A stretch of DNA of 64,000 bases, taken from the NCBI GenBank assembly GCA_965205975.1, contig OZ242195.1:2272001-2336000 (forward strand). The letters run 5' to 3'. This document shows positions 39,059-63,487 of the stretch, one piece after another. Position 1 is the first letter of the stretch; every line of letters starts with the position of its first letter. The notes under the pieces were generated by a model that saw nothing but the letters and a program-made list of their open reading frames with translations, had not been told where the DNA came from and did no database searches. The translations under genes were made by a program, and so were the position numbers. This DNA comes from Candidatus Latescibacterota bacterium (lineage in GTDB: Bacteria > Latescibacterota > UBA2968).

Positions 39059-40852
39059 ATGAAACCCGAAGATAGTGCCAGAAAGAACATTGACAGGCAA
39101 CTGGAAGCCGCAGGCTGGCGTATCCAGGATCGTGAGAATTTGAATCTCGGTGCCTCGCTGGGCGTGGCTGTCCGGGAATTTCCACTGAAATCCGGTCTGG
39201 CGGATTATCTGCTTTTTGTCAACCGAAAAGCCGTTGGTGTGGTAGAAGCAAAGCCTGAAGGTACGACACTGAGCGGCGTAGCAGAACAATCCTATAAATA
39301 TCTAACAGGGGTTCCTGAAGGTCTCCCACATGTAGGAGATCCGCTTCCTTTTGCCTTCGAGACTACTGGTATTGAGACGTTCTTTCGGGATGAGCGTGAT
39401 CCGTATCCGCGTTCCAGACGGATATTTGAATTTCACCAGCCTCAGATCCTTCAGGAATGGGTGGAAGAGAAAGAAACGCTTAGAGCGCGGCTACTGAATC
39501 TACCACTGCTGATCAAAGCACCGCTGCGGGACTGCCAGATTGAGGCCATTGAAGGACTGGATCAGTCGTTTAAGGAAGCCCGCCCAAGAGCACTCATTCA
39601 GATGGCTTCTGGCAGTGGTAAGACATACACGGCCATTTCCTTTATCTATCGCCTGATCAAATTTGCCGGAGCCAAACGTGTCCTGTTTCTGGTAGATCGT
39701 AGTAATTTGGGACGTCAGACAGCGCGGGAGTTCCAGCAGTATAGCCCACCCGACGATGGTCGCAAATTTACAGAATTATACAATGTCCAGCACCTGCGCT
39801 CCAATAAAATCGACAAAGTCAATAAGGTATGCATCACGACGATCCAGCGCTTGTATTCAATGCTAAGTGGTGAGACTGAATATCACACAGAAGATGAGGA
39901 AGGTTCTCTGTTCGACACTTCCCCAGTGCGTTTCGACCGTGAGCAACAAAAGGAAGTCATTTACAATCCGAGTATTCCTGTTGACACGTTTGATTTCATC
40001 GTCACCGACGAGTGCCACCGCTCAATTTACAATGTGTGGCGCCCGGTACTGGATTATTTCGACGCCTTTGTGATTGGTCTGACAGCAACGCCTTCCATGC
40101 AGACCCTGGGATTTTTCGACCAGAATCTGGTAACGGAATACAGCCATGAGCGCGCTGTAGCGGATGGCGTGAATGTCGGCTACGAAGTGTACAGGATCAA
40201 GACCCAGATTACGCAGGAAGGCAGCAAGATCGAGGCTGGTTTCCATGTGGATAGACGCAACAAGTTGACGCGAGCGCGGCGGTGGAAACGCTTGGATGAG
40301 GACCTGGAGTATGAGTCTCGCCAACTCGACCGAGAGGTAGTTGCTCCCGACCAGATCAGGACTGTGATCAAGACGTTCAAGAGCCGGTTGTTCACTGAGA
40401 TTTTCCCGGGCAGAACCGAAGTACCAAAAACACTCATCTTTGCCAAGGATGACTCACACGCAGAAGATATAGTCCATATCGTGCGAGAGGAATTTGGCAA
40501 AGGCAATGAGTTTTGCAAGAAAATCACCTACCGCACCACAGGCGAGAGTCCCGAAGACCTAATCACCAGTTTTCGCAACTCCTATAATCCCAGAATTGCG
40601 GTAACCGTGGATATGATCTCCACCGGCACGGACATACGCCCCCTTGAGTGTTTGTTATTTATGCGTTCAATCAAGTCACGGGTGTATTTCGAGCAAATGA
40701 AAGGCCGTGGAACACGCACGATTTCAGATACGGATATCAAGGCAGTAACGCCGGATACCGAGCACAAAACGCATTTCGTAATTGTCGATGCCGTAGGTGT
40801 GTGCGAGGACGACAAGACCGATTCCCGACCTCTGGCTTTCTATCTCCATTAA
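39059..40852 (+). pseudogene. hsdR: Type I restriction enzyme R subunit (EcoAI/EcoEI-like), 3'-truncated
   Basis: Nuclease ADYLL...VEAK, MASGSGKT, DECHRS, GLTATP and FEQMKGRGTR are present. The protein stops at 597 aa just after the helicase core and runs into hsdS-like sequence. Confidence 0.85.
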
Positions 40853-42000
40853 ATAAAATACAGAGAGGAACAAGCTATCCCGCTGTGAGAGATTCTGATG
40901 TTTTTTCACAGATAGTGCCTATTCCACCAGAAAATGAGCAAATTCGCATCGTCACCAAAATTGAAGAGCTTTTCACCAAACTCGATGCGGGCAAAGAAGA
41001 ACTCTTGCAGGCGAAAGCGCGATTGAAACGCTATCGTCAGTCTGTCTTGAAAGCAGCCATGGACGGAAAGCTGACGGAAGATTGGCGAAAGAAGCATGGG
41101 GACGAGGTTGAACCAGCGTCTATATTACTGGAGCGGATTCTCAAAGAGCGGCGAGAGAAGTGGGAAGCAGAGCAGCTTGAGCAGATGCGGGCAAAGGGGA
41201 TGATGCCCAAAAATGATAAGTGGAAGAATAAATACAAGGAACCACCAGGACCGTATACCTCGAAACTATCCGAGTTGTCGGAAAGGTGGATGTGGGTAAC
41301 GCTACCTCAAATTGGCGAATTGAACCGTGGCAAGTCAAAACATCGACCGAGAAATGCATCTTTTTTATATGGCGGTCGATACCCATTCGTACAGACTGGA
41401 GACATTAAACAGGCAAATGGTCTAATAGGACATTATAATCAGACATATAGTGAGGAAGGTCTTAAGCAGAGTCGCTTATGGCCTTCAGGTACACTCTGTA
41501 TTACTATCGCTGCAAATATAGCTGATACAGCAATTCTTGGATTTGATGCATGTTTTCCGGATAGCGTGGTTGGTTTTTTGCCAGAAATAGGACATTGTAA
41601 TATACGCTTTGTTGAGTTCTTCTTGCGGACAGCTAAGGACGACCTTGAGCGATATGCTCCTGCCACTGCTCAAAAAAATATCAATCTGGGGACATTAAAA
41701 GATTTAGCTATTCCTTTTCCGCCATTAGCCGAACAAAATGTGATCACTGAAGAAATAGATCGCCACCTCTCTGTTGCCGATGTAGTCGAAGCAACTGTTG
41801 ACGCCGAACTCAAACGATCTGATGCGCTCCGTCAATCTATTCTTAAGCAGGCGTTCTCGGGCAAACTGGTTCCGCAAGACCCCAATGACGAGCCAGCGGA
41901 GAAATTGCTTGCGCGTATTAAAAAAGAAAAAACTAAACTGGAGACCGAGCAGAAGACCAATAGAAAAGCCAAAAAGCAATTGGCGTTATTTGAGCATTGA
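40828..42000 (+). pseudogene. hsdS: Type I R-M specificity subunit, 5'-truncated (end of TRD1, conserved region, TRD2, conserved region)
   Basis: PIPPENEQIRIV..IEELF, RQSVLKAAM.GKL, EPAS.LL, then PPLAEQ..I, RQSILKQAFSGKLVPQDP.DEPA. Only one complete TRD. Confidence 0.85.
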
Positions 42001-42026
42001 AGATGGAATAAAAAAAGGATAGAACG

Positions 42027-42317
42027 ATGGGAAAAACCACACTTAAAATGCAGTTTCACCTTCCGATTGAAAACATCTCCAAAAAGCATCAAATGGTAGC
42101 GACAAAAAAGGCAAAAGCTGCCTTCGTACTTGAACTTCTCCGACAAGGGGACATCAGCGCGGGAAAAGCAGCAGAACTTCTCAACGTTTCCCGATGGAAA
42201 CTCTCGAAAATGATGGCTGATGCAGGGATTTCCGCCTTTGATGAAAGCCAGACAGCAGAAACCTTACAGGCGGAAGTTGACAACGCCCTGCAAGACTTCG
42301 AAAATTCCACACCATGA
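42027..42317 (+). CDS. UPF0175 family antitoxin-like HTH protein
   Basis: L.L...G.IS.GKAAELL.VSRW motif. 96 aa. Confidence 0.85.
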   Translation: MGKTTLKMQFHLPIENISKKHQMVATKKAKAAFVLELLRQGDISAGKAAELLNVSRWKLSKMMADAGISAFDESQTAETLQAEVDNALQDFENSTP

Positions 42318-42526
42318 AGGTTGTCGCAAATAGTACACCGCTAATTGAACTCTCGAAAATCCGCCAATTGGAACTCCTTCGGGATGTATATGGCTCAATC
42401 ATCATTCCAGAAGAAGTGTACACCGAAGTGGTCATTGATGGTGCTGGTGAATCGGGAGCCGCAGAAGTGGCAGCGGCACAGGAGAGTAATTACAAAAATG
42501 CCATCAGAAGTTTCCAGATTAAATGA
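42314..42526 (+). pseudogene. DUF3368-type PIN-domain toxin, truncated
   Basis: MKVVANSTPLIEL.KI..LELL...Y..I.IP.EVY.EV. Similarity ends at about aa 56, and the ORF overlaps the hsdM start. Confidence 0.75.
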
Positions 42527-44036
42527 TCCAGCGTCAATTGTGCAAAAATTGTGGAATTACTGCAATGTCCTGCGCGATGACGGCGTCAGTTATGGCGATT
42601 ATGTCGAGCAGTTGACCTACTTGCTTTTTTTGAAGATGGCCGACGAGCAGACCTGGCCGCCCTACAATAGGGAATCAATTATCCCATCAAATAAAGACGG
42701 CAATGCGCTTGATTGGCCCAGCTTGATTGAAAAAGATGGTGATGCCCTCGAAAACCATTACCGACACATCCTCACTGAGCTTGCCAGAGCTGACGGGATG
42801 CTGGGTGTGATCTTTCGCAAATCTCAAAACAAAATACAGGACCCGGCCAAGCTCAAGCGCATCATCTATCTCATTAATGAAGAAACCTGGATGGGAATGG
42901 ATATTGATGTGAAAGGCGAGATTTATGAAGGACTCTTGCAGAAAAACGCCGAGGATGTCAAGGGTGGTGCCGGTCAGTATTTTACCCCACGTCCCCTCAT
43001 CAAGGCGATGGTTGAGGTAATGCAGCCAAAACCCGATATGACGATCTGCGACCCAGCCTGTGGCACGGGCGGTTTCTTTCTGGCCGTGCACAAATATCTA
43101 TCAGAGAACTACAGGCTTGATCGGAAGCAAAAGGAATTTCTGCGCTTCAACACGTTCACCGGTACGGACATCGTTGACGGCGTCGTCAGACTGTGTGCGA
43201 TGAACCTTTATTTGCACGGCATCGGCGGAGATGAAAGCCCGGTCACGGTGGGTGACAGTCTGATCAGCGATCCTGGTGATCGCTTTGACATGGTGCTCAC
43301 CAATCCTCCCTTTGGCAAGAAAAGCAGCGTCACCATCGTCAACGACGAGGGCAAGGCCGACAAAGAAGCCCTCACCTATGAGCGCGAAGACTTTTGGGCA
43401 ACCACCTCCAACAAGCAGTTGAACTTTTTGCAGCACATCAAGACCCTGCTCAAGATCAACGGCAGTGCGGCAGTGGTACTGCCCGATAATGTGCTCTTTG
43501 AAGGGGGGGCTGGCGAGACGGTGCGCAAGAAACTGCTACAGGAAGCCGACGCACATACCCTTCTTCGCCTACCCACGGGCATCTTTTACGCGCAGGGCGT
43601 GAAAGCCAATGTCTTGTTCTTTGACCGCAAGCCAGCAAGCGAGCATCCCCGGACAGAGAAGTTGTGGATTTACGATTTGAGGACGAACAAGCATTTCACG
43701 CTCAAGAAGAATCCATTGCGCTTTGAGGACTTGCATGATTTCATCGAATGCTACAACCCTGAAAATCGACACGACCGCAAGGAAACCGAGCGGTTCAAGT
43801 CCTTTGCGTATGATGAGTTGATGCAACGGGACAAGGTGAGTCTGGACATCTTTTGGCTGCGAGATGAAAGCCTCGAAGAGTCCGAGAACCTTCCAGAACC
43901 AGACGTGATTGCTGCGGAGATTACTGAAAATCTGGAGGCAGCATTAGAGCAGTTTGCGAGTATTTACGAGGAGATTGCTCCCAACGAGGATGAGACAACC
44001 GAAGAGTACCTCGAATCTCTGACCCAAACTAATTGA
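42498..44036 (+). CDS. hsdM: Type I R-M methyltransferase subunit
   Basis: IVQKLW..C.VLRDDG, GAGQYFTPR, DPACGTGGF, NPPF and LRLPTGIFYAQGVKANV. SD CAGGAG before ATG 42498. Confidence 0.95.
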   Translation: MPSEVSRLNDPASIVQKLWNYCNVLRDDGVSYGDYVEQLTYLLFLKMADEQTWPPYNRESIIPSNKDGNALDWPSLIEKDGDALENHYRHILTELARADGMLGVIFRKSQNKIQDPAKLKRIIYLINEETWMGMDIDVKGEIYEGLLQKNAEDVKGGAGQYFTPRPLIKAMVEVMQPKPDMTICDPACGTGGFFLAVHKYLSENYRLDRKQKEFLRFNTFTGTDIVDGVVRLCAMNLYLHGIGGDESPVTVGDSLISDPGDRFDMVLTNPPFGKKSSVTIVNDEGKADKEALTYEREDFWATTSNKQLNFLQHIKTLLKINGSAAVVLPDNVLFEGGAGETVRKKLLQEADAHTLLRLPTGIFYAQGVKANVLFFDRKPASEHPRTEKLWIYDLRTNKHFTLKKNPLRFEDLHDFIECYNPENRHDRKETERFKSFAYDELMQRDKVSLDIFWLRDESLEESENLPEPDVIAAEITENLEAALEQFASIYEEIAPNEDETTEEYLESLTQTN

Positions 44037-52412: not shown

Positions 52413-52712
52413 ATGGCTCGCATAGATATTCCCCGAATCGCGTATCCCCATATCGAACGGAATCCAGATATCCTCTCAGGCGAACCCATTATACGAGGAA
52501 CACGCATTGGCGTACGGCACATCGCAGAATGGGACCGCCGTGGATACAGTGTGGATGAAATTATCGCACAATACCCTCACTTGACCCATGCACAGGTTCA
52601 AGATGCCCTATCTTATGCTTTTGATCACAAGTCTGAAATTGATCAACTCATTCGGGCAAATACAAAAGATGCTGTCCGATCAAAATATCAAGATAGTGCA
52701 TGGATGCCATAA
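52413..52712 (+). CDS. DUF433 family antitoxin-like protein
   Basis: I.RNP.ILSGEP.IRGTRI.V, G.S.DEI...YP.LT..QV.DAL.Y. Confidence 0.9.
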   Translation: MARIDIPRIAYPHIERNPDILSGEPIIRGTRIGVRHIAEWDRRGYSVDEIIAQYPHLTHAQVQDALSYAFDHKSEIDQLIRANTKDAVRSKYQDSAWMP

Positions 52713-53053
52713 AGTTATATTTAGATGAAGATATTTTTCGAATATTAGCACCAGTGTTGAGAAGTCGCGGTTATGATGTCCTCAGTGTCTATGATGTTGA
52801 AATGACAGGCAAAACAGACCGTGAGCAACTTGAGTGGGCTGCTGCTCAGGATCGCGTGATAGTTAGTTTTAATGTGCGCCACTATGCCGATTTAGCAGAA
52901 ACATTTTACAATGGAGGCAAAACACATGCAGGTATTCTTGTCTCTCCTCAGATTAGCTTTTCCGATCTGTTGCGATTAATTTTGAATGTCCTATCAAAAA
53001 GCAAACCTGAAGATTTGAGGAATACATTTCAATGGTTACAAGGTTGGCGTTAA
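52700..53053 (+). CDS. DUF5615 PIN-like toxin
   Basis: KLYLDED, LR.RGYDV, D.EQL..A...DRVIVSFN...Y and HAGI. Overlaps the DUF433 gene. Confidence 0.88.
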   Translation: MDAIKLYLDEDIFRILAPVLRSRGYDVLSVYDVEMTGKTDREQLEWAAAQDRVIVSFNVRHYADLAETFYNGGKTHAGILVSPQISFSDLLRLILNVLSKSKPEDLRNTFQWLQGWR

Positions 53054-53114
53054 ACCATTGATTTTATTTTTTTAGAAAAGTTTAATTGTTTTCCATTAAA
53101 CTGTAAAATTTCCC

Positions 53115-53143
53115 TTGACACCTGTTCTTTTGTTTAGTATTTT
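53115..53143 (+). promoter_or_regulatory. sigma70-type promoter with degenerate LexA-like box in the spacer
   Basis: TTGACA-17 nt-TATTTT. Spacer CCT-GTTC-TTTT-GTTT-AG. Confidence 0.5.
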
Positions 53144-53187
53144 TGTGCATAGAACGTTGAGACATAATCCTTCGACAGGAGGTAATC

Positions 53188-53511
53188 ATGGCAAGCATTG
53201 AGGTTCAGACCGAGCAGGGAACGGTGTACAACTGCGATAGCAGTTCAATTAGTGAAATTCTATTGTCCGATTTGAGTCGGGATTTGCTCAAAGTTGCCGA
53301 TCGCATTCAGGCCGAGATGCCACATGTACCTTTTGATGCCATTCGTCCCGAAGCCCTGGCGCGCGTCGAAGCCGCCGAGCAAGCTGTCGATACTCTGGCA
53401 CAAGATTTGTGCAAGGGGCAAGGAGAACTCACTGAGTGGCACGGTGCCCTGACGGCTTACGAATCGGCCTGGTTTCAGGTTATAGAGTCTTTAGGCGTCC
53501 GCAATAATTAA
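53188..53511 (+). CDS. hypothetical helical protein
   Basis: 107 aa with strong SD AGGAGGT. No recognised motif. Confidence 0.75.
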   Translation: MASIEVQTEQGTVYNCDSSSISEILLSDLSRDLLKVADRIQAEMPHVPFDAIRPEALARVEAAEQAVDTLAQDLCKGQGELTEWHGALTAYESAWFQVIESLGVRNN

Positions 53512-53592
53512 ATCACATATACTCACGTTTATTTTCGGCAATAAATAACCCGTCGTATTGCCGATTTCCACGAAAGCAAAGGAGAGATAGCA

Positions 53593-54330
53593 ATGTCCCA
53601 GCGAGATATGAAAACGAATAACTCAAATATGAAGGCGACAGCAACCCAACCCATCGACCATATCAAAACTCAGATTGCAGAATCCGAAGGTTTTCCCACC
53701 GAGAAAATCGATGAGTTTGTGATATTCATCCAGAACGATCCCTACATCACGTCTGCGGGGTTGCAGTACAAAATGTTGCAAACCTATAAGGCTGGCAAAT
53801 TCGCTGTGCAGGCTGTAATGCCTACCAAAGAAGAATACGCTTTATTGCGGCAAATGATGGGATTAAAAGATGAGGAACCGCTGGTGGTAATGCGCGGTGA
53901 AGTGTGGGTTGATGGGCTTGCGCGGCCTTTTGTCGATTACGGCACTACAACACCTAAAAATCTCAAAGGATTTGTGCGGTTTTCAGATTATCCACTCGAA
54001 ATGGCGACGCGACGCGCCACCAATCGGGCGATGCGTTTGGCTACTGCGACGGGAATGTGTTCTGTCGATGAGCTACAGGTAGCCACAGACGCCGCACAGA
54101 CCAACGGCGATGTTGAAGCGATGCACAACGGTTCATCTGCTACGCAAAGTCAAATTGATCTGATTAAAAATCTGGGGCGCAGTCCACGGCTAACCGAGCG
54201 AGAACGCGAGCGATTGAAAACCCAGATTGAAGGTGGATTGGACAAGCGTCAAGCATCGGAATTGATCCAAAAAATAAAAGCGAGGTTAGACGCCCGGCGC
54301 AAAGCCGATGCACAACCTATCGCGGCTTGA
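53593..54330 (+). CDS. putative single-strand annealing protein (Rad52/Sak/Red-beta superfamily-like)
   Basis: IQ..PYIT.AGL, YG...P.N and EMA.RRA.NRA.RLA...GMCS.DEL core. C-terminal AT..Q...I..L...L.K..AS.LI motif seen in phage SSAP tails. Confidence 0.6.
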   Translation: MSQRDMKTNNSNMKATATQPIDHIKTQIAESEGFPTEKIDEFVIFIQNDPYITSAGLQYKMLQTYKAGKFAVQAVMPTKEEYALLRQMMGLKDEEPLVVMRGEVWVDGLARPFVDYGTTTPKNLKGFVRFSDYPLEMATRRATNRAMRLATATGMCSVDELQVATDAAQTNGDVEAMHNGSSATQSQIDLIKNLGRSPRLTERERERLKTQIEGGLDKRQASELIQKIKARLDARRKADAQPIAA

Positions 54331-54401
54331 TTTTGAGCCGGTTGTCGCGCGCATTCTTTCGTCAGGGGAGAGGGGAAGGATTTAGCGTACAACCGGCACT
54401 T

Positions 54402-54447
54402 AACAAAAAAGCGGGAGCTCTTTGAGAGCCCCGCTTTTTTGTTTTTT
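54402..54447. terminator. bidirectional intrinsic terminator
   Basis: AACAAAAAAGCGGG...CCCGCTTTTTTGTT. Confidence 0.85.
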
Positions 54448-62387: not shown

Positions 62388-62416
62388 TTGACTTATGAAC
62401 AAATGTTCACTATATT
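62388..62416 (+). promoter_or_regulatory. sigma70 promoter with putative LexA (SOS) box
   Basis: TTGACT-TAT-GAAC-AAAT-GTTC-AC-TATATT with a 17-nt spacer. Palindrome TGAACA-AA-TGTTCA. Confidence 0.7.
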
Positions 62417-62497: not shown

Positions 62498-63487
62498 ATG
62501 ATTTCCGAAATGAACCAGCATCGCACCCCAGTCCTGCAGGCCTTTCGCAAAGCTTCAGATTGTACCTCGCCCTATGTGGGTGATGAGCCCTCTCTGGCTT
62601 ATTACTACAAGGAGATCGAACGACATCCACTGCTTACGCCAGACGAAGAAAAAGCACTGGCAGATCAAATTGCTCTGGGCGACCTGCCAGATGCGGGTGC
62701 TCGTGCTCGGCGAGCAGGAGAGCATGCTCGCGAAAAGCTCATCACCAGCAACCTGCGCTTTGTTATTCACATTGCCAAAAATTTTAAGAATCAAGGGCTA
62801 CCCATGGCCGACCTCATCAATGAAGGCAACATGGGTTTGATGACTGCCGCCCGCAAATTCAAACCCGAAAAGGGTTACAAGTTCATTACTTACGCAGTCT
62901 GGTGGATCAGGCAGAACATCCTCAAAGCCCTCGAAGTTCAAACACGATCCATCCGGATTCCCGGTAATGTTGTCAACGACCTCAACAAACTGCGCAAAGT
63001 CGAAGCTGACCTGACTCAGCACCTCGACCGACAACCCGATGCCGATGAACTCGCCCGGGAAACCGATCTGCCTATAAAAAAAGTTACACACACCCTCGAA
63101 TCGGCTTACAATACCGTATCTCTGGATACCCCGATGTACGATGAAGCCGCAAACTCCGCACCACGCGCTATCACCCTGCAAGAAACCCTATCGGACCCCC
63201 AAACATTGTCTCCGGAAGACGCCTATATTCAAGATACTATGCACAGTGATATACACAACGCGCTCAGTGCCCTGCCCGACCGTGACCGGCAAATTCTACA
63301 TCTCTATTACGGTTTCAGCGACCCGGCAGAACGCGCCGAAGTTAGCAGTTCAAAACCCGCAACCTATCAACAAATAGGCGACAAACTGGGAGTAAGCCGA
63401 GAACGGGTGCGCCAACTCAAAGAGGAGGCACTCAATCGGCTGCGGCATCCCACTCACAGTAAGCGACTTGCCACCTATTGCAGTTAA
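62498..63487 (+). CDS. RpoD/SigA-family sigma factor lacking region 1.1 (group 2-like)
   Basis: YYKEI...PLLT.DEE, NLRFVI.IAK, DLINEGN.GL, KFITYAVWWIRQ, IRIP and GVSRERVRQL. Confidence 0.93.
   Translation: MISEMNQHRTPVLQAFRKASDCTSPYVGDEPSLAYYYKEIERHPLLTPDEEKALADQIALGDLPDAGARARRAGEHAREKLITSNLRFVIHIAKNFKNQGLPMADLINEGNMGLMTAARKFKPEKGYKFITYAVWWIRQNILKALEVQTRSIRIPGNVVNDLNKLRKVEADLTQHLDRQPDADELARETDLPIKKVTHTLESAYNTVSLDTPMYDEAANSAPRAITLQETLSDPQTLSPEDAYIQDTMHSDIHNALSALPDRDRQILHLYYGFSDPAERAEVSSSKPATYQQIGDKLGVSRERVRQLKEEALNRLRHPTHSKRLATYCS

Follow-up and report, generated by a model that had tools for sequence, protein, structure and literature searches.

A predicted phage-type single-strand annealing protein kept as a chromosomal gene behind a candidate LexA operator in Latescibacterota

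We analysed a 64,000-nucleotide (nt) stretch of DNA (the window; contig OZ242195.1, positions 2,272,001 to 2,336,000 of the forward strand, assembly GCA_965205975.1) from a Candidatus Latescibacterota bacterium, an uncultured sponge-associated organism, and studied in it a two-gene operon whose second gene encodes a predicted single-strand annealing protein (annealase) of 245 amino acids (aa). The reading that we favour, and that we hold to be probable, is that a phage-derived annealase was turned into a vertically inherited host gene and placed under a LexA operator of the SOS response. The gene has the look of a viral recombinase adopted for host repair because it is an ordinary single-copy chromosomal gene and because its operator is of the type found at lexA and recA. 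An earlier reading of the letters alone (hereafter, the sequence-only reading) had described a promoter, two open reading frames (ORFs), an intergenic hairpin and a terminator as one unit, and all of these lie where it had put them (Table 1); the operator was absent from it and is a new addition. Numbers preceded by G, L and f label genomes, loci and groups in this analysis, G000 being the genome of the window.

The model predicted for the 245-aa protein (predicted local distance difference test, pLDDT, 89.6) has strands at residues 43-46, 49-52, 70-75, 98-106 and 113-119 and helices at 54-65 and 134-151. Their order, b-b-a-b-(a)-b-b-a, is that of the conserved annealase fold (PMC11611040), and the model shows the hallmark of the Rad52/Red-beta superfamily, namely a beta-hairpin together with a sheet of three strands over which a helix crosses (PMC11783212, PMC11611040). 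The motifs that had been taken for an annealing core, PYITSAGL, EMATRRATNRAMRLA and GMCSVDEL, are indeed in the protein and largely invariant across its family, and the crossing helix bears the invariant residues R140, R141, N144, R145 and R148, whose arginines are suggestive of a basic groove for single-stranded DNA (ssDNA) in a ring or helical oligomer. In a Foldseek search against the PDB, the top 11 rows were all RAD52, Mgm101, Red-beta or Sak, and in a VIA structure search of 48161 chains Red-beta ranked first and RAD52 third and fourth, with modest scores in both searches. Viral structure models gave 59 matches at E<=0.001, and the named ones among them were RecT, Bet, Erf or Sak3. Judging from the predicted model, an annealase fold is very likely, and the likeness to Rad52, Sak and Red-beta proposed from the motifs is borne out by it.

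At the sequence level, the protein matches none of the Pfam families Rad52_Rad22, RecT, ERF and SSAP_Sak at E<=0.5, and 36 close homologues match no Pfam annealase family at E<=0.1. Direct searches of Pfam, NCBIfam, PDB sequences and GenBank phages (tblastn) with the 245-aa protein were empty, and PHROG returned families of unknown function only. The link to the named annealases is an indirect one, since a hidden Markov model (HMM) of the core alone matches P0216 (E 1e-4, positions 14-140), which itself lies above the Pfam RecT cut-off and matches Bet weakly. The unnamed phage family phrog_22961 was matched by 54 of the 108 members of the wide family. For one close homologue, the nearest Atlas clusters consist to 94-98% of viral hypothetical proteins, and the nearest named families in the Atlas listing are Slr1353_N (Pfam PF27148) and SSAP_Sak; these Atlas matches are leads without alignment. 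No function is assigned in those libraries to phrog_22961, the Atlas clusters or Slr1353_N. An HMM of the C-terminal domain matches P0260, which is Pfam ERF, with an E of 1.6e-16, and the same type of domain is found fused to an Erf-family annealase; this domain is a candidate binder of the SSB tail. A 1022-residue open frame at L024 (G009:C2) contains two weak matches to it.

The annealase gene is present at full length and in one copy in each of the 21 genomes of the genus, always on the chromosome. Compared with G000, the ratio of nonsynonymous to synonymous substitution (dN/dS) is 0.05-0.15 in 19 of 20 genus comparisons, as expected under purifying selection, the remaining genome being nearly identical at this gene. 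Pairwise annealase distances track those of recA, with a rho of 0.95 over 406 pairs and of 0.84 over the 210 pairs within the genus (pairs that are not independent of each other). In the f1/f2 relatives, the locus sits among rnpB, tRNA, LysR and TPR genes, and this position is conserved across two families. The gene is thus a single-copy, vertically inherited chromosomal gene under purifying selection, in agreement with the domestication that the sequence-only reading had proposed. Across the phylum, 29 of 168 genomes have an intact annealase; in another 4, no more than a remnant or a remote relative is found. The gene is dispensable, given that complete relatives lack it and that G029 holds a broken copy (L023/L074), in which the first codons run into a GCAGGC-rich repeat stretch and then a tail that is out of frame, with the small gene, the box and the hairpin retained. 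Between G008 and G000, the synonymous distance (dS) is 0.007 for the annealase and 0.17 for recA, which hints at a recent local exchange.

Outside these chromosomes, relatives with 42-65% identity lie beside genes for phage replication initiators, DnaB, terminase or Cas4-like exonucleases, as a phage ancestry would have it. For instance, L219, 65% identical to the window annealase, adjoins a phage replication initiator; L224 has DnaB and L227 a terminase close by, L228 follows a Cas4-like exonuclease, the viral L082 has a methylase and an initiator in its neighbourhood, and L083 is next to a PD-(D/E)XK nuclease. The window itself has no such setting: from 33 to 63.5 kb, a search with 25 ORFs gave no match to a head, tail, packaging or integrase PHROG, and from 1 to 33 kb the ORFs were checked by eye. 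The statement that no phage genes lie nearby stands. No exonuclease gene of the Red or RecET type of pairing adjoins the annealase among its neighbours in the window. In a tree of the core (93 rows, weak support), the phage-like L219 is nested among chromosomal copies and the viral L082 takes a place between G141 and the remaining copies, and a single chromosomal clade is not rejected by the approximately unbiased (AU) test (p 0.425); one capture and several captures are not separable by these trees. A remote related family (L157:4353-5679, L158 and L159) adjoins an SSB gene in G141 and PD-(D/E)XK and DUF932 genes in G143, and a gene that looks DUF932-like by eye is also near its copy in G149.

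The promoter of the operon is of a sigma-70 type that occurs in the window at chance level (3 found, shuffle mean 4.7), and it is kept at all 21 genus loci and in sister genera. A palindrome in the spacer between its -35 and -10 elements was first seen when upstream regions of relatives were aligned. A de novo search of 17 lexA upstream regions from outside the genus gave the motif TG(A/C)AC-N4-GT(G/T)CA in all 17, always in the same spacer register, and reciprocally, small-gene promoters from genomes of other genera yielded a matrix that, run on G000, hit the promoter sites of both lexA and recA. We take this motif to resemble GAAC-N4-GTTC and the boxes of Myxococcus and Fibrobacter. The genome encodes a canonical LexA (TIGR00498 above cut-off) and recA; because lexA is, as a general rule, autoregulated, we take LexA to be the protein that binds the box. 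With a scoring matrix of 26 distinct lexA and recA promoter sites, none of them from the annealase operon, the window operator scores 6.8 and ranks 9 among 725 promoter-like sites of G000 (median -24), and 2 of 20000 shuffles of it score as high. The sites ranked above it belong to lexA, recA, a radical-SAM protein related to spore photoproduct lyase, a primase-polymerase, a sigma factor, an ankyrin protein, an efflux adaptor and a paralogue of the small gene.

In the genus as a whole, 13 copies of the operator score 6.8, 2 score 8.4, 1 scores 11.0 and 5 score 13.5, and in six annealase-bearing f1/f2 genomes outside the genus the scores are 8.3-18.1. Among promoters outside the training set, the box is present in 5/5 for lexA and 6/9 for recA; the recA promoters without it are one cut by a contig end and those of G140 and G141. 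In these two genomes, which represent a distant lineage, the annealase occurs without the small gene behind a promoter of its own, whose boxes score 16.1 and 18.3. This is the strongest independent point in favour of the operator, in contrast to the phage-like annealase loci, where no LexA-type box was found in the promoter spacer (best scores -0.7 to 5.1). Three points weigh against SOS control: the window operator is degenerate, with three departures from the consensus and its low score of 6.8; 573 positions of G000 score as high; and such a score lies upstream of 4.7% of 3805 ORFs. On the whole, the promoter comparisons make it quite likely that the annealase operon is under SOS control.

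If so, LexA bound in the promoter spacer would damp transcription, with a repression that is probably leaky in the genus because the operator is degenerate, and DNA damage would, through RecA-stimulated cleavage of LexA, give more of the two-gene mRNA. The annealase core could then form rings or helical filaments in which ssDNA is held along the arginine-rich helix and complementary strands are annealed, while the basic C-terminal bundle could dock on the acidic tail of the host SSB and so reach SSB-coated DNA. With no partner exonuclease alongside, the protein would use ssDNA made by the host, such as resected breaks and gaps, and would act alongside RecA and RecO in break or gap repair; the host encodes recA, recO and SSB. 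A role in annealing-based repair is reasonably probable. The sequence-only reading had called the module RecA-independent, which holds for the biochemistry of the family but not for the host, which has these genes; we limit the term to that biochemistry because a LexA-controlled promoter would need RecA for its induction.

Other readings of the same locus have to be weighed. DdrA, a known domesticated Rad52 homologue, shields 3′ ends from nucleases (PMC515370), and the window protein might likewise have kept the fold while mainly binding and protecting 3′ ssDNA ends, or helping to load RecA, instead of annealing. That no exonuclease partner adjoins the gene and that RecO is already in the host would suit such a role, yet the core is still 42-65% identical to copies in phage replication and recombination modules and the type of C-terminal domain is kept, so that little remodelling is visible; we regard this alternative as rather unlikely. 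Somewhat less likely still, the protein could be an annealase whose operator has decayed in the genus, leaving the operon constitutive or run by a second palindrome, TTAA-N10-TTAA, upstream. The departures from the consensus and the low score speak for decay, as do the presence of the operon in RNA libraries of three studies for which the listing names no damage treatment and the fact that the second palindrome is the best genome-wide match to its own matrix. Against it, 23 distinct promoters show next to no variation at the core T-G-x-x-C and G-T-x-x-A positions of the box, while two of its four central bases are free to vary; 5 of the 21 genus copies are one base nearer to the consensus (13.5); and the recA site of G000 also departs from it in the left half. 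The second palindrome has its only exact match in the window here (0.12 expected) and, of 44 small-gene promoter rows, some of which repeat a locus, 36 have it at 13-16 nt from the -35 element; none of the inspected f3/f4 promoter rows has it. LysR, encoded downstream in relatives, was considered as its reader and set aside, as G000 has no close orthologue (best 31%). One other strong copy in G000, at C1 2552644, separates divergent genes, of which one looks QueE-like by eye.

The small protein had been proposed as a dedicated partner of the annealase, and an obligate two-protein module would agree with the adjacency of the two genes, the small one preceding, in all 27 f1/f2 genomes with an intact annealase, and with the acidity of the small protein and the basic character of the annealase C-terminal domain. 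However, each gene also occurs alone. The family of the small protein is found in 89 of 168 genomes, paralogues included and mostly without an annealase, as against the 29 with an intact annealase; at 8 inspected orthologous loci, there is no annealase behind the small gene, with the box and the 3′ stem-loop motif mostly retained; G140 and G141 have a small-family gene elsewhere in the genome; and an HMM of the small protein gave 5 matches over 22 loci, all of the chromosomal type and none phage-like. The partner proposal thus does not hold up well, and we consider an obligate module improbable. Hardly more can be said for a defence-linked role, in which the annealase would repair DNA after restriction or CRISPR cutting, aid spacer uptake or interfere with incoming phage annealases: there are box-like sites in G000 before cas3, a CRISPR-associated primase-polymerase (above the NCBIfam cut-off) and methylase loci, but the annealase locus is fixed among the housekeeping genes named above (rnpB, tRNAs, LysR, TPR proteins), not in defence islands, and evolves slowly, which leaves this role very improbable. 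A decaying prophage remnant is hardly credible; phage relatives exist and the G029 copy is broken, but the dN/dS values and the distances that track recA already contradict it, as do the position conserved across two families and the lack of phage structural genes nearby.

Our best reading of the small gene is that it is an older, separately boxed candidate SOS gene, whose promoter the annealase shares, and not a required subunit. Its product has no family in Pfam, PHROG, NCBIfam or Atlas, and its model (pLDDT 70.8) has helices at residues 21-46, 54-75 and 81-106; the isoelectric point (pI) is 4.3. From this charge, a modulator that mimics ssDNA or the SSB tail is conceivable but unsupported. 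The ORF exists as described, but its length of 107 aa is atypical; orthologues have 98 aa, the difference being due to a 27-nt in-frame insert that is missing from 18/18 aligned homologues and from RNA contigs of relatives. The insert reproduces a short dispersed repeat with 5 exact 13-mer copies in G000 and 5-18 related copies depending on the pattern; this repeat, a core GGTGTACAACTGCG followed by AGCAGTT, is in frame in the small gene of the window and of G019 and is also inserted in the annealase start of G010 (coding starts L020 and L012). G000 has a paralogue of the small gene with its own box (L150, G000:C1 4011280-4011609), two copies are found throughout the genus, and 2 of 4 further family members that were checked have strong boxes. 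Upstream of the small gene of several relatives, a conserved element (L062:3740-3830, L060, L063, L071 and L076; chance translation LWDGPIGILEH) has no Rfam match (L062) and no blastn match in G000. The small protein represents a new candidate SOS protein family.

When a bacterial annealase is not part of a prophage, it is usually regarded as unannotated phage debris, DdrA being the exception. In its predicted fold, the order of secondary structure and the small helical C-terminal domain, the window protein is like phage Red-beta (PDB 7ujl), RecT (7ub2) and Sak (8qe9/8pq8) and eukaryotic RAD52 and Mgm101, and like those phage annealases, the phage members of its family adjoin PD-(D/E)XK nucleases or replication genes. 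In contrast to Red-beta, RecT, Sak and RAD52, it matches none of their Pfam families and has an extra helix inside the sheet, and its gene is chromosomal and single-copy, with no adjacent exonuclease and with a host LexA-type operator. The Rac RecET system of E. coli is likewise a phage annealase that can be used for host recombination, but it sits in a defective prophage with its nuclease. Deinococcus, too, retains a Rad52 homologue, DdrA, as a gene of its own with a link to the damage response (PMC515370); DdrA belongs to the IrrE/DdrO regulon, independent of LexA (PMC8072749), while the window gene bears a LexA-type operator. DdrA has been shown to protect 3′ ends. According to a review, captured annealases occur sporadically and have phage genes on their flanks (PMC8987985), neither of which holds for the window gene; a survey of Firmicutes interprets chromosomal copies as likely leftovers of prophages (PMC8093625). 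As in other LexA/SOS regulons, this genome combines a canonical LexA with a palindrome in the lexA and recA promoters that overlaps the core promoter. We did not find the motif TG(A/C)AC-N4-GT(G/T)CA for Latescibacterota in the open-access literature, no annealase appears among the SOS members in the accessible part of PMC8565304, and on the window family, its operator or an SOS-controlled chromosomal annealase we found nothing in that literature beyond passing mentions, although members of the family might be among the candidates listed by PMC11783212.

With a lineage-wide, selected and apparently SOS-wired annealase, the bacterial damage response would gain a Rad52-like activity, the box provides a candidate LexA site and a small regulon for an uncultured phylum, and an annealase of an unnamed family is directly testable for recombineering. 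A broader idea, which we put forward tentatively and consider doubtful as a whole, is that phage annealases are taken into the LexA regulon of bacteria time and again, as an overlooked Rad52-like branch of the SOS response. The family would have been captured at least twice in Latescibacterota, in f1/f2 behind the small gene and in G140/G141 as a lone gene, and on each occasion would have acquired a LexA box, which is missing from the phage copies; a portable C-terminal domain would couple different annealase families to the host SSB, and the small three-helix family would be a second lineage-wide SOS protein.

Table 1. Features of the annealase operon, in window coordinates
Feature	Position	Strand	Remarks
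Second palindrome TTAA-N10-TTAA	53081..53100	+	14 nt upstream of -35; candidate site of a second regulator
Sigma-70-type promoter TTGACA-17-TATTTT	53115..53143	+	Conserved in relatives
LexA-box-like operator in the -35/-10 spacer	53121..53138	+	3 departures from TG(A/C)AC-N4-GT(G/T)CA
Small acidic three-helix protein gene, 107 aa	53188..53511	+	Unnamed family, so far Latescibacterota
27-nt in-frame insert, copy of a short dispersed repeat	53221..53247 (approximate borders)	+	
Intergenic hairpin	53535..53564	+	8 consensus pairs, 4 with compensatory changes (14 loci)
Gene for the 245-aa single-strand annealing protein, predicted Rad52/Red-beta superfamily, unnamed family	53593..54330	+	
Annealase core, residues 22-161	53656..54075	+	Beta-hairpin, helix, three-stranded sheet with inserted helix, crossing helix
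Basic three-helix C-terminal domain	54136..54312	+	Helices 185-195, 202-213, 218-240; pI 10.6
Conserved 3′ stem-loop with GGGGAGAGGGG motif	54337..54397	+	z -5.4
Intrinsic terminator, bidirectional in form	54402..54443	+	z -6.1

The terminator is as strong as the sequence-only reading had it, whereas the folding energy of the intergenic hairpin is ordinary (z -1.05), even though half of its pairs show compensatory changes. The GGGGAGAGGGG motif of the 3′ stem-loop is kept downstream across two families, even at loci without an annealase; its consensus core has no compensatory pairs and matches no Rfam family at threshold, and it is possibly an undescribed RNA element. Contigs from RNA libraries of close relatives cover the operon at 53076-54397 (X1), 53160-54397 (X4), 53157-53883 and 53927-54378 (X5), and 53905-54376 (X7, which has another contig reaching upstream into the DUF433 pair described below). 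They come from 4 of 18 runs and 3 studies, runs with a share below 0.2 (8/18) not being counted, and the runs that hold most of the stretch are labelled sponge metagenome. The contigs start at 53157 and 53160 in two studies and further upstream in others, and end at 54376-54397, near the terminator. They fit a two-gene transcript between promoter and terminator; such contigs give neither strand, level nor single-molecule proof, and depth was not used to rank expression.

Around the operon, the window contains genes for an ABC permease, a DUF433/DUF5615 pair and a TPR-GWxTD protein. The best LexA-type box of the whole genome (21.8) also lies in the window, at 62394-62411, and a weaker box precedes it by 38 nt. 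The best box is part of the promoter of a gene (62498-63487) for a group-2-like sigma-70 factor, a candidate for an SOS-induced sigma factor. Further box-bearing promoters of G000:C1 are at 2370011, 3496420, 3101321, 2942104, 33798, 5392763 and 5318226, and the genes behind them encode a radical-SAM protein related to spore photoproduct lyase, a CRISPR-associated primase-polymerase with TPR, an ankyrin protein, an efflux adaptor, cas3, a DUF5131/C5-methylase pair and an AAA ATPase; going by these boxes, several defence genes of G000 may be damage-linked. Type I restriction-modification-like genes (an HsdR-like helicase and an N6 methylase) at 39059-44036 are split by short ORFs and are possibly disrupted. 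The DUF433/DUF5615 pair (52413-53053) is toxin-antitoxin-like and, across the genus, present, partial or absent at that spot.
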